64,000 nt of DNA, taken from positions 1 through 64,000 of the IMG/VR virus record IMGVR_UViG_2799113165_000002; one strand, 5' to 3'. The notes under the pieces are model-generated. The model saw only the letters and a list, made by a program, of their open reading frames with translations. It was not told the DNA's origin and ran no database searches. Each line of letters opens with the position of its first letter. The first letter of the stretch is position 1. This document shows positions 1,988 to 34,842 of this stretch, in pieces. This DNA comes from a virus. Its lineage: Duplodnaviria > Heunggongvirae > Uroviricota > Caudoviricetes. The translations under genes were made by a program, and so were the position numbers.

Positions 1988-2007
1988 ACGTATAGCACGC
2001 TATACGT
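1988..2007. promoter_or_regulatory. 16-bp inverted-repeat site 1 (ACGTATAGCACGCTATACGT), putative operator
   Basis: Near-perfect palindrome with arms CGTATAGC/GCTATACG, about 40 bp upstream of the 2048 gene. Belongs to the GTATAG-N4-CTATAC family seen at five or more intergenic sites. Confidence 0.5.
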
Positions 2008-2047
2008 TCAAGCAGGAATGCCAGCGAACACTAGGGAAGGTCCGACC

Positions 2048-2365
2048 ATGTCAATTGCAAGCACTGCAATCACGCTGACCGTGGACGAGCTGGATGCGGT
2101 CAGCCGCTCCATGCTTGTTCACGAACCGCACTCGGACGTACGTCCGGCATTCGATTGGGTCGGTCGGGGTCACCTGCCGCCGTGCCTGGCCTACCGCGGC
2201 GACCGTGTCGTCGAGTTCGGATACGAGGTCGCGGTGGTGGTGGCGGCCCGGCAGGGAGGTGACGACGTTGACGCGATTCGTAGGGCCATCAAATCCCTCG
2301 GGCCTTGTCACCGGCAGGGCCGTATCCACTTCTGGCCCCGCGTGATTCCCGCGGTTGCCGACTGA
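2048..2365 (+). CDS. hypothetical protein
   Basis: ORF with RBS GGGAAGG 7 nt upstream of the ATG (MSIASTAITL...). 105 aa. Confidence 0.5.
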   Translation: MSIASTAITLTVDELDAVSRSMLVHEPHSDVRPAFDWVGRGHLPPCLAYRGDRVVEFGYEVAVVVAARQGGDDVDAIRRAIKSLGPCHRQGRIHFWPRVIPAVAD

Positions 2366-2380
2366 ATCCTCCTGGTTACT

Positions 2381-2425
2381 TCTCACCCCCGTCCCATGTG
2401 GGCGGGGGTGATTTCTTTTTCTTCA
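2381..2425 (+). terminator. rho-independent terminator-like hairpin
   Basis: CACCCCCG-loop-GCGGGGGTG stem followed by a TTTCTTTTTCTT tract, immediately after the stop of the 2048..2365 gene. Confidence 0.5.
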
Positions 2426-2444
2426 TGCTCACGCTTGCCTAAAA

Positions 2445-2462
2445 CGTATAGTGCGCTATACA
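2445..2462. promoter_or_regulatory. 16-bp inverted-repeat site 2 (GTATAGTGCGCTATAC), putative operator
   Basis: Reverse orientation of the site 3/4 core, about 45 bp upstream of the 2504 gene start. Confidence 0.5.
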
Positions 2463-2503
2463 TTCGAGCTATCGGTCAAGCAAACACCAACTAGGAGGAA
2501 ATC

Positions 2504-32600: not shown

Positions 32601-32728
32601 GCCCAATAGCCCTCGCGGGTGGCACGAGCAGGATCGCAGTCGGTTACCCCACCCCTCGCAAGGATGACGAACCCCGGCAGCCCTTCACACGTTCGCGCCG
32701 CCCGCACCCTCTAACAAGGAGATGCACG

Positions 32729-34444
32729 GTGGACGTTCTCACCACTATCGGAACCCGTAAGACGCCGCAGTCGCAGCAGGCGGACCCCCGGCAGGTGAAG
32801 AACTCCGCCGGTGGCTACACCTTCACCATCGACGACGAGGCCCTGCTGCACCGCTTCCTCACCCTCGGCACCGACGGCGGCACCTACTACACCACCGCCC
32901 CCGACCTCACCAAGGAAACAGCGGCCGTCGTGCTCCGCGCAGCAGCGGCCGACCCAGTCCGCCTCGTCCAGCACATCGTCGAGGTGTCTGTGGCCGGACG
33001 CGCACCCCGGCAGAACCCGGCCCTGTTCGCCCTCGCCATCGCCGCCGCAGCAGAGGACGTCGACGGCCGCCGCGCCGCCGCAGCAGCCCTGCCCACGGTC
33101 GCCCGCACCGGCACCCAGCTCTACACGTTCGTGAAGTACATGGAGCAGTTCCGCGGGTGGGGCCGCGCCATGCAGCGCGCCGTCGGCGGCTGGTACCTCG
33201 ACAAGCCCGTCGACCGCCTCGCCTACCAGCTGGTCAAGTACCGGCAGCGCGAAGGCTGGATGCACCGGGACCTACTACGCCTGTCCGGCCCCACCACGGC
33301 GGACCCGGCCCGCCGCCTCGCCTTCAACTGGGCAGTCGGCAAGGGCCTGAACGACTACATCGGTAAGGTCCAGCCCCTCACTGCCGAGCAGTTGAAGGCG
33401 GGGGAGCGCAACGCCTCCCGGCCCAAGCTGCCTAACGTCGAGCTTGTGGTTGACCACCCCCTGGCGATCATCGAGGACTTCGAGGATGCCCAGCGCGCCA
33501 CCCAGCCCAAGGAATGGGTGAGCATCATTCGACGTGGCAACGGCCTTCCCTGGGAAGCGTTGCCAGACGTCGCGCTCAACTTCACCGCTGTGTGGGAAGC
33601 GCTGATTGAGCACGGTCTGCCGCAGACCGCATTGATGCGCCAACTGCCTCGCCTGACCCGGCATGGGGTCCTCCATGGTGAATATCTGGATCGCGTGGTT
33701 GCTCAGCTCCAGGACGCCGACCGTCTACGCAAGGGACGCGTACACCCGGTCAACGTTCTGATCGCACAGCGCACCTACGCGTCCGGGCGTTCGGCGCGCG
33801 GCGACTCCACCTGGACGCCGGAACGCAAGGTCGTGGACGCTCTGGACGCCGCGTTCTACAACGCCTACGGCGCGGTAGAGCCGTCGGGCAAGCGCACCCT
33901 GCTGGCGCTGGACGTGTCCGGCTCCATGGGCGCCGCGATCTCGGGTATGCCGCTGACATGCCGCGAGGCCGCAGCCGCACTCGCACTCGTCACCACCAAC
34001 GTTGAGCCCGACCACGAGGTCGTCGGCTTCACCGACGGACGACAGGCCGCGCGCTCGGGCTACGGCTACCGGTCCCAGCACCACATCACCCCGCTGGACA
34101 TCACACCGCGCCGCCGCCTCGACGACGTGTGCCGGTACACCGCCGGACTCAGCTTCGGCGCCACCGACTGCGCACTCCCGATGCTGTGGGCACAACAGTC
34201 CAAGCGCGAGTTCGACACGTTCGTGGTCATCACCGACAACGAAACCTGGTTCGGCGACGTCCACCCACACCAGGCGCTCCGCGACTACCGCAACAAGACG
34301 GGCATCAACGCCCGCCTGATCGTTGTCGGCATGACGGCAACCCGCTTCACCATCGCCGACCCCGACGACCCCGGCCAGCTCGACGTGTCCGGTTTCGACT
34401 CGGCTGTCCCGCAGCTGATCTCGGACTTCTCGGCCGGACTGTAG
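32729..34444 (+). CDS. rsr: Ro60/Rsr ortholog: TROVE domain + von Willebrand A domain protein
   Basis: N-terminal TROVE hallmarks (GGYTFTIDDEALLHRFLTLGTDGGTYYTTAPDLTKETAAVVL...VEVSVAGRAPRQNPALFALAIAA). C-terminal vWA MIDAS motif LLALDVSGSMG...FTDG. GTG start with RBS AAGGAG. 571 aa. Confidence 0.8.
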   Translation: MDVLTTIGTRKTPQSQQADPRQVKNSAGGYTFTIDDEALLHRFLTLGTDGGTYYTTAPDLTKETAAVVLRAAAADPVRLVQHIVEVSVAGRAPRQNPALFALAIAAAAEDVDGRRAAAAALPTVARTGTQLYTFVKYMEQFRGWGRAMQRAVGGWYLDKPVDRLAYQLVKYRQREGWMHRDLLRLSGPTTADPARRLAFNWAVGKGLNDYIGKVQPLTAEQLKAGERNASRPKLPNVELVVDHPLAIIEDFEDAQRATQPKEWVSIIRRGNGLPWEALPDVALNFTAVWEALIEHGLPQTALMRQLPRLTRHGVLHGEYLDRVVAQLQDADRLRKGRVHPVNVLIAQRTYASGRSARGDSTWTPERKVVDALDAAFYNAYGAVEPSGKRTLLALDVSGSMGAAISGMPLTCREAAAALALVTTNVEPDHEVVGFTDGRQAARSGYGYRSQHHITPLDITPRRRLDDVCRYTAGLSFGATDCALPMLWAQQSKREFDTFVVITDNETWFGDVHPHQALRDYRNKTGINARLIVVGMTATRFTIADPDDPGQLDVSGFDSAVPQLISDFSAGL

Positions 34445-34450
34445 GAACGC

Positions 34451-34681
34451 GTGGACCCAAGGGCACAGCAGGCGCGGGAGCATCACCGGTTGCAGCGTGA
34501 TGCCTCCCGCGTCGGCGAACAACACCGGTACGAACGAGACCGGCTAGTTCGTGAACTGTGGACCACCGAACGAGAGAAGTGGACCTACGCCACGTTGGCC
34601 GCGGCGGTGACGTGCAGCCCGGGACTGATCCAGAAGATTCTCGACGGCCGCACCCCAACAGCCCAGCACGTCACCAGGTAA
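34451..34681 (+). CDS. small HTH protein
   Basis: YATLAAAVTCSPGLIQKILDGR is HTH-like. 76 aa. Confidence 0.4.
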   Translation: MDPRAQQAREHHRLQRDASRVGEQHRYERDRLVRELWTTEREKWTYATLAAAVTCSPGLIQKILDGRTPTAQHVTR

Positions 34682-34699
34682 AGGAAGGCAGACGCCGCA

Positions 34700-34813
34700 A
34701 TGGATTTCAACACCCCACTCCAAAGCCTGAACGGCTGGCCCGCCGCGGTCGTCCTTGCCGTCGTGGTCCTCTGCGTGACGGCCGTGATCATCGCGGTTAT
34801 CCGCGCCGACTAA
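34700..34813 (+). CDS. small membrane peptide (37 aa)
   Basis: RBS AAGGAAGG, and TM helix AAVVLAVVVLCVTAVIIAVI. Confidence 0.35.
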   Translation: MDFNTPLQSLNGWPAAVVLAVVVLCVTAVIIAVIRAD

Positions 34814-34826
34814 CGCTCGACGCGAC

Positions 34827-34842
34827 GTATAGCGCACTATAC
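34827..34842. promoter_or_regulatory. 16-bp inverted-repeat site 4 (GTATAGCGCACTATAC), identical to site 3
   Basis: 11 bp upstream of the 34853 gene start. Confidence 0.5.

Follow-up and report, generated by a model that had tools for sequence, protein, structure and literature searches.

The 64,000 nucleotides (nt) of viral DNA analysed here (IMG/VR virus record IMGVR_UViG_2799113165_000002, positions 1 to 64,000; hereafter, the window) carry five copies of a 16-bp palindrome, GTATAGNNNNCTATAC (GTATAG-N4-CTATAC), which is very likely an operator embedded in a promoter core. Taken as a whole, the sequence evidence leads us to favour, with moderate confidence, a set of promoter-embedded operators for a second, phage-encoded repressor that is separate from the immunity switch. 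A pattern search of the window detected four exact copies (sites A, B, C, and E in Table 1) and one copy with a single mismatch (site D), at the same positions that an earlier sequence-only reading had listed as four repeats and a degenerate copy. The four exact copies stood against 0 expected in 100 dinucleotide-preserving shuffles, and the five matches in 64 kb with at most two mismatches against 0.29 expected. No site in the window had exactly two mismatches and the few three-mismatch matches were chance-like in appearance, so that the motif set is sharply defined; one of the latter, at 38846, lies after a gene beside a terminator-like hairpin and was not counted. A de novo search of the window for recurrent 6-N(0-8)-6 palindromes recovered this family alone. 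In the gene annotation of prophiT37-1 and prophiGD43A-5, both close relatives, each of the five sites falls in an intergenic region and is overlapped only by mechanical open reading frames (ORFs), in agreement with the earlier claim that no copy lies inside an ORF.

Read towards the adjacent gene, the five sites showed the same plan, in which a -35-like hexamer is separated by 4-5 nt from the 16-bp palindrome and the last three bases of the palindrome supply the TAC of a -10-like element, TAC(A/G)(T/G)T, giving a spacer of 17-18 nt. The T closing the -10 element, 3 nt past the palindrome, was found at five of the five sites in the gene-ward orientation and at two of the five in the opposite orientation, as judged by eye from the printed flanks. 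The gap between the palindrome and the start codon fell into two exact classes, namely 10 nt without a Shine-Dalgarno sequence (the BrnT-like toxin, secreted protein, and gp51-like genes) and 42 nt with a good Shine-Dalgarno sequence (the gp107-like and gp108-like genes); these gaps (42, 42, 10, 10, and 10 nt for sites A to E) agree with the 10-45 bp given by the sequence-only reading. Many mycobacterial mRNAs are leaderless and start approximately 7 nt after a TANNNT box, the mycobacterial -10 rule. Because the 10-nt gaps have no Shine-Dalgarno sequence and the gap at site E varies in sequence but never in length among orthologs, the 10-nt class suggests leaderless mRNAs starting at the ATG. 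When this looser TANNNT rule was applied, the geometry matched a TTGNNN/TCGACN-17/18-TANNNT pattern with leaderless spacing, from which we infer active promoters. MerR-type activator sites have their dyad in an over-long -35/-10 spacer of 19-20 bp, whereas the spacer was 17-18 nt at every window site.

The window was assigned to a phage group by sequence comparison. Bases 1423-6010 matched the right end of prophiT37-1 (Mycobacterium abscessus, Cluster MabK) at 98.5%, and base 5974 onward corresponded to its left end; judged from this joining of the two ends, the window is the circular/viral form of a Cluster MabK M. abscessus temperate phage. The earlier attribution of the left 4.7 kb to the same element is thereby borne out for the left 6 kb. 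The attP core, a tRNA 3' end, lies within the 3' part of the HTH_3 repressor gene (~5940-6010) with a tyrosine integrase adjoining, and the window phage uses integration-dependent immunity. Phages of the same type have attP within the repressor gene (PMC8092301). T makes up 15% of the window bases. The motif sites are not recombination boundaries; this was ruled out by their location within conserved blocks and not at mosaic breakpoints.

The proposed scan of relatives placed sites at orthologous positions in prophiT37-1, prophiGD43A-5, and approximately nine MabK-like prophage contigs of IMG/VR, with 6-7 sites per complete relative genome as compared with five in the window. In six ortholog groups from approximately 10 MabK genomes, variable columns numbered 1 of 72 in the half-sites, 9 of 24 in the central N4, and 83 of 240 in the ±20-nt flanks, the last count being slightly inflated by one indel in group B (Fisher p for half-site conservation, 2e-10 versus the flanks and 8.5e-6 versus the centre). 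The upstream half-site, which lies in the spacer, was as invariant as the downstream half. Since the spacer half-site is little constrained by a sigma factor and yet equally invariant, two fixed arms around a free centre are, as far as sequence can tell, the signature of a site for a dimeric DNA-binding protein. The resemblance to a dimeric repressor operator noted earlier is thus strengthened by the conserved half-sites and the free centre, together with a position that appears to overlap the core promoter. In the orthologs of site E, for example, the central N4 was CGCA, CGAA, CAGA, or TGCA and the 10-nt gap varied in sequence, with fixed half-sites and a fixed gap length.

A sixth site, F, was found outside the window, upstream of prophiT37-1 gp102 (68023) and prophiGD43A-5 gp109 (69101). 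Here, the ATG follows the palindrome by 7 nt and the -10 element is TATACT, as compared with 10 nt and TACNNT elsewhere; in the relatives, this spacer is the only one that can be read as 19 nt. Because the register of the palindrome relative to the start codon shifts at site F, the comparison argues for the palindrome as an element independent of the promoter. In the MabK-like prophage IMG/VR 2795385756_000001 (~32.8 kb), an extra perfect site (TCGACA-tagc-GTATAGCGCGCTATAC-attagaaat-ATG) precedes an unrelated 83-aa ORF, and this shows how newly acquired genes would be recruited to the same control.

A related motif was present in Cluster Y phages. Typha, a Cluster Y phage of Mycobacterium smegmatis, and MabK have approximately 25 genes in common, with amino-acid identities of 35-57%. 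A direct motif scan found 10 sites of the form GT(C/A)TAG-N4-CTA(T/G)A(A/C) in Typha (NC_054393) and nine in Bipper. Most of the Typha sites lie in a strongly conserved promoter, TTGCGG - 7 nt - GTCTAGnGAGC-TATAA(C), followed by a conserved leader, and BLAST found 6-9 copies of this promoter cassette in each of Typha, Nadezda, Bipper, Cracklewink, and Hilltopfarm (Cluster Y). Perfect dyads of both forms, GTCTAG..CTAGAC and GTATAG..CTATAC, occur in Cluster Y (GTCTAGTGGACTAGAC and GTATAGTGCCCTATAC in Typha; GTCTAGAGAGCTAGAC in Bipper). In MabK, Typha, and Bipper alike, the motif lies ahead of the gp108 homologue; therefore, at least one regulatory link is conserved across the clusters. The Cluster Y cassette, promoter plus leader, is repeated as a unit of ~70-90 bp (Typha 33410, 34577, 38014, 63169, 64162, 67195, and 69037; Bipper 32997-71347). 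Its leader, CACCGGGGCAGGTACCAGACCAGCCCC, is strongly conserved downstream of the motif, with GGAGG and the ATG coming next, and could be an RNA element or a second binding site.

The immunity switch between the leftward repressor gene and the excise gene was compared with the dispersed sites. The switch carries TATGCGC-type repeats and the palindrome TGCGCGTACGCGCA. It has no GTATAG motif, the best match in 6201-6460 having 5 mismatches, and the Typha switch (41198-41402) has no motif at two mismatches or fewer. Between MabK and Typha, the repressors share 64% identity and the P_R spacer, CTATGCGAATATGCG, is unchanged; the dispersed motif, in contrast, is not the same in MabK as in Cluster Y. 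Because the switch is conserved across the clusters while the dispersed motif differs, the immunity repressor is an unlikely binder. The claim that the motif is distinct from the rep/cro switch, which had been taken to imply a second regulator, thus withstood this comparison. Both repressors end in the tRNA-derived motif VRP(K/E)GFEP; hence, integration-dependent immunity is probable for Typha as well. The excise gene seems to be leaderless (CAAGAT box, 6 nt, ATG 6438).

A candidate for the binding protein is provided by genes encoding small helix-turn-helix (HTH) proteins. In Bipper, the one perfect palindrome (32338) is followed after 8 nt by the ATG of gene 39, which is annotated as 'HTH DNA binding protein' (83 aa) and is located directly after the lysis cassette. 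MabK gp102 (73 aa), which has site F upstream, shows the same genome position and leaderless geometry as Bipper gp39. Both proteins are basic, and AlphaFold2 models gave each a long N-terminal helix followed by short C-terminal helices. The two families were aligned over 57 columns with an hhalign probability of 54% (E 1.3e-4), and Typha gp37 showed a weak HTH_23 match. In protein searches, the gp102 family was confined to MabK prophages, and both this and the Bipper gp39 family were tiny, with no bridging members; a gp102-like gene is absent from the window. Because of the shared synteny after the lysis genes and the palindrome at its own promoter, we tentatively propose this small HTH protein (prophiT37-1 gp102, prophiGD43A-5 gp109, or Bipper gp39) as the binder. 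That the binder is phage-encoded, whichever protein it may be, appears likely.

Other proteins were also considered. Four HTH candidates had been named by the sequence-only reading, of which the products of 28821-29246 and 10809-11594, both shared with Cluster Y, stay candidates, whereas those of 34451-34681 and 6668-7567 are poorly placed. The 76-aa HTH protein of 34451-34681 accompanies Ro genes in Sparky, Farewell, and Gordonia phages, and Sparky has a 67% homologue yet no motif in the 52.5 of 63 kb scanned. The protein of 6668-7567 has no homologue in Typha although Typha has the related motif, and its relatives outside MabK are distant only. An HTH protein beside the integrase (4134-4724) was ranked low: homologues of its N-terminal domain (53-59%) occur in MabH and MabC prophages and in Purky, genomes in which neither the motif nor a recurrent 6-N4-6 palindrome was found. 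The BrnA-like antitoxin is an unlikely binder, being acidic, without a match to a DNA-binding domain, and found in MabK only. The gp106-like protein is a lipoprotein, and the gp109-like zinc-ribbon protein is missing from prophiGD43A-5, which retains all sites.

Based on these observations, each palindrome would be an operator within a SigA-type promoter core, filling most of the spacer and opening the -10 element with its last three bases. A dimeric small HTH protein would bind the palindrome, which would span approximately -26 to -11 relative to the start at the three leaderless window sites and -23 to -8 at site F, and would thereby exclude RNA polymerase. The five promoters of the window (6-7 per complete genome) would then form one co-repressed regulon consisting of the BrnT-like toxin/antitoxin operon, the secreted protein/Y-RNA/Ro-like operon, the gp51-like gene run, the gp107-like gene, the gp108/109-like genes and, outside the window, the small HTH gene. 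The gp102-type protein, encoded after the lysis cassette, would repress its own leaderless promoter via the same palindrome, in a circuit distinct from that of the integration-dependent immunity repressor. The bulk of prophiGD43A-5 is reported to be silent in the lysogen (PMC8092301); this silence, stated for the prophage at large and not for these promoters, is compatible with repression. The earlier description of a moron regulon of accessory genes was partly apt; the promoter at 34827, however, heads a long rightward run of genes of unknown function. A bolder extension, which is possible but doubtful, is that MabK and Cluster Y phages possess a second, immunity-independent switch, in which a fast-evolving, autoregulated gp102/gp39 repressor would hold strong, partly leaderless accessory promoters to be released together on a signal. 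It is likewise doubtful, though conceivable, that the bank under this switch would comprise a toxin-antitoxin pair, the Ro/Y-RNA module, toxin-linked genes, and the conserved gp108 family.

Several observations weigh against repression by such an HTH protein at these promoters. A scan with the strict sigma-70 consensus, which is of the E. coli type, called none of the five sites, each reaching at most 8 of 12, and MabK site F varies at the first base of the right half. The homology between gp102 and gp39 is weak, the C-terminal region of the gp102 model has low confidence, and a fold search with this model gave no significant match (best E 2.2); its weak fold resemblance was to a resolvase E-helix plus HTH. 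In addition, the Typha gp37 promoter has a degenerate left half-site, and three other DNA-binding proteins common to MabK and Cluster Y would be equally eligible as the binder: the immunity repressor, the gp42-like HTH protein, and the gp11-like protein. Use of the palindromes as operators or activator sites by an early lytic protein, either the gp42-like HTH protein (28821-29246) or the gp11-like two-HTH protein (10809-11594), would make the motif the mark of a delayed-early/middle promoter class whose activity is turned on or off in the course of infection. Both proteins occur in MabK and the motif-bearing Cluster Y (56-58% and 36-38% identity, respectively), the gp42-like gene is located just upstream of the motif-promoter block in both phage groups, and the reported silence of most prophage genes in the GD43A lysogen (PMC8092301) would suit promoters needing an early factor. 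We nevertheless consider this unlikely: overlap with the -10 element and the spacer is the position of a repressor and not the usual one of an activator, and the palindrome is missing from the promoters of both genes. The two clusters have many other genes in common, so that co-occurrence is not discriminating, and Sparky has a 38% gp42-like homologue but no motif in its scanned part.

The presence of the motif in phages of two different hosts would also be expected if a host transcription factor conserved in mycobacteria were the binder and the phage accessory genes were plugged into a host regulon. This appears improbable, as the half-site tracks the phage cluster (GTATAG in MabK versus GTCTAG in Cluster Y), and MabK and Bipper each have a syntenic small HTH gene bearing the palindrome on its own promoter. 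Furthermore, the motif was not found in the three prophage/phage genomes of other clusters that were checked (two from M. abscessus), multi-copy matches in high-GC contigs were confined to MabK-like prophages in two IMG/VR scans, and a literature search gave no mycobacterial regulator with this site. Slightly less probable again is that the palindromes are secondary operators of the integration-dependent immunity repressor, through which these promoters would be shut down in the lysogen in the manner of Cluster A stoperators. As an HTH_3 protein, the repressor belongs to a kind that binds palindromes of ~16 bp, and its 64% identity between MabK and Typha and the reported silence of most of the prophage in lysogens would fit; however, the switches, marked by CTATGCGAATATGCG and the TATGCGC-type repeats, lack the motif as described above, and the motif differs between the clusters. 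The least credible reading is that there is no dedicated binder and that the 16-mer is a promoter core (the spacer with the -10 element) propagated by duplication, or forms a hairpin in the transcribed RNA. The right half does overlap the -10 element, reading TATAA in Cluster Y, the leaders at sites A and B are paralogous, and the Cluster Y cassettes are repeated as units. Nevertheless, the spacer half-site does not vary, even though the sites have entirely different -35 boxes and flanks; two kinds of perfect dyad exist; and site F is in a different register relative to the start codon from the remaining sites. RNA folding at the operators was weak, approximately -5 kcal/mol with z from about -1.5 to -2 at four of the five sites (-8.5 kcal/mol and z -3.5 for site A with its flanks), such hairpins would lie upstream of leaderless starts, and the Cluster Y halves would pair poorly. 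No operator site has the T tract that accompanies the stable GC-rich stem of a terminator; only the everted copy has these features.

The features of the window are summarized in Table 1.

Table 1 Putative promoters and operators, with associated elements, located in the window.
Feature	Position	Strand	Details
Promoter A and operator	1980..2008	+	-35 TCGACA 1980-1985; palindrome GTATAGCACGCTATAC 1990-2005; -10 TACGTT 2003-2008
Intrinsic-terminator-like hairpin	2383..2421	+	12-bp stem and T tract; predicted to end the gp107-like transcript just upstream of promoter B
Promoter B and operator	2435..2464	+	-35 TTGCCT 2435-2440; palindrome GTATAGTGCGCTATAC 2446-2461; -10 TACATT 2459-2464
Immunity switch	6276..6437	.	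between leftward repressor gene (ATG 6275) and excise gene
Promoter C and operator	31341..31379	-	-35 TTGTTC 31379-31374; palindrome 31369-31354; -10 TACATT 31356-31351
Promoter D and one-mismatch operator	31392..31430	+	-35 TTGCTT 31392-31397; GTATAGCTCTGTATAC 31402-31417; -10 TACGTT 31415-31420
Everted palindrome	31821..31848	+	GCTATACCGCGGTATAGC (31821-31838), then TTCGTTTTCA; after the secreted-protein ORF; terminator scan
Promoter E and operator	34817..34855	+	-35 TCGACG 34817-34822; palindrome GTATAGCGCACTATAC 34827-34842; -10 TACAGT 34840-34845

Promoter A, conserved in 8 distinct ortholog sequences, precedes the gp107-like gene (ATG 2048). The stretch 2018-2386 is annotated on opposite strands in the relatives (prophiGD43A-5 gene 114 versus prophiT37-1 gene 107); because the promoter, the Shine-Dalgarno sequence, and the downstream terminator (2383-2411) fit, we favour the predicted plus-strand gene at 2048-2365 over the opposite-strand annotation. 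Divergent from promoter A, the minus-strand gene at 1476-1925 encodes a predicted lipoprotein with a signal peptide and a Cys-containing lipobox-like motif (TAGC); a leftward promoter through site A for this gene is not well supported. Promoter B precedes the gp108-like gene (394 aa, ATG 2504), with AGGAGG in the leader, and the gp109-like gene. The 42-nt leaders of A (2006-2047) and B (2462-2503) are paralogous, with the pattern (G/A)TTC(A/G)AGC ... GC(G/A)AACAC ... AGG.AGG, which suggests that the promoter-leader cassette was duplicated between the two sites.

The leftward promoter C lies before the ATG at 31343 of the BrnT-like toxin/antitoxin operon, the mRNA of which is probably leaderless. 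Downstream of this gene pair, the region 29969-30909 (~940 bp) contains two or three extra leftward ORFs (30048-30302, 30321-30689, and 30569-30904). Because these are lacking from prophiT37-1 and are matched only in part in prophiGD43A-5, the region is, by this comparison, a variable cargo slot in the promoter C operon. Promoter D precedes the gene for the secreted 112-aa protein (ATG 31428), after which the operon carries YrlA-like RNAs, the Ro-like gene (32729-34444), and a pair of small genes. Within this operon, the stretch at 31947-32700, which precedes the Ro-like gene, has three YrlA-like (Y RNA) matches that fall short of the Rfam gathering score; a tRNA-Thr(TGT) was also called there at 32012-32090, and 32091-32249 gave a tRNA-like match. 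The inside-out palindrome of the sequence-only reading exists but was shifted by one base (31821-31838, not 31820-31837). It folds at -9.2 kcal/mol (z -2.8) and is followed by a T-rich tail; thus, it is probably a terminator-like or processing hairpin for the secreted-protein transcript, upstream of the YrlA-like RNAs, and not an operator. Promoter E precedes the gp51-like gene (ATG 34853) and the rightward genes that follow.

The half-site was also observed in distant genomes. At least 120 matches were listed for GTDB genomes, among which Christensenellaceae dominated and Mycobacterium was not represented. Among these listed matches, the 16-mer GTATAG(Y)GC(R)CTATAC was found in dozens of genomes of Christensenellaceae and uncultured Clostridia, often on several contigs per genome, and looks like an unrelated lineage-specific operator or repeat. 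Two low-GC viral contigs, IMG/VR 3300010279_000272 (5929 and 6163) and 3300029585_000175 (3153 and 6033), have two GTATAG-N4-CTATAC copies each. Both copies abut reverse-strand ribosome-binding-site-like sequences in the former and adjoin TTGAC-like boxes in the latter, and these copies may represent independent operator systems that share the half-site.

Prophages of M. abscessus are believed to influence virulence and resistance to phages, while the expression and timing of their accessory genes are largely obscure. A shared operator would link a toxin-antitoxin pair, a Ro/Y-RNA module, and conserved genes of unknown function in a concrete, testable unit with a candidate regulator, and the same logic appears to be conserved in Cluster Y phages of M. 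smegmatis, which are experimentally easy. The short operator, compact promoters, and small repressor could become an orthogonal expression-control tool for mycobacteria. If the second switch exists, it would exert master control over the accessory functions of prophages in a clinical pathogen and would offer mycobacterial genetics a ready-made, orthogonal set of repressor, operator, and promoters.

In a full-text literature search with the half-sites, 'operator', and 'repressor', nothing relevant was obtained, and the M. abscessus prophage papers that were searched by term mention no palindrome and no operator in MabK phages. The nearest described systems differ in symmetry, copy number, or position. 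The conserved family of promoter-embedded sites, probably operators, is real and appears to be previously undescribed. It introduces no new principle, as phage repressors with several promoter-embedded operators are well known. In P22 immI (Mnt/Arc) and P1 (C1, with many dispersed operators), a small repressor acts on promoter-overlapping operators outside the main immunity switch and is autoregulated. The MabK system has no sequence relationship or demonstrated structural relationship to these; P1 operators are asymmetric, and Mnt/Arc control a single divergent region as compared with 6-10 operons in MabK/Cluster Y. The gp33 operator of BPs, which serves integration-dependent immunity and is a 12-bp palindrome at P_R, overlaps an early promoter and lies at the switch, whereas the MabK motif does not and is unrelated in sequence. 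The start-associated sequences of Cluster K are asymmetric 13-bp motifs 3-8 bp upstream of start codons and act at translation; the present motif is symmetric, with gaps of 10 or 42 nt, and the 10-nt gaps have no purine-rich Shine-Dalgarno-like stretch.

The closest parallels are found among other mycobacteriophage clusters. Like the sites described here, the stoperators of Cluster A (L5-type) and MabJ are many short, scattered, mostly intergenic conserved sites for one phage regulator, at least one of which overlaps a SigA-like promoter (PMC9934374). They are, however, asymmetric, 13-14 bp long, oriented with transcription, present in 14-30 or more copies, located mostly outside promoters, and bound by the immunity repressor, whereas the MabK sites are dyad-symmetric (6-N4-6), number 5-7, all lie in putative core promoters, and are absent from the immunity switch. 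The 17-bp palindromic repeats of Cluster O (TGTTCGGNNNCCGAACA) likewise have invariant arms, a variable centre, and a predicted dimeric binder, but exceed 30 copies, with approximately one-third inside genes and most not associated with promoters according to the authors (PMC4351075). In contrast, the MabK and Cluster Y sites are few and all apparently promoter-embedded, the five copies in the 64-kb window being intergenic and promoter-like throughout.

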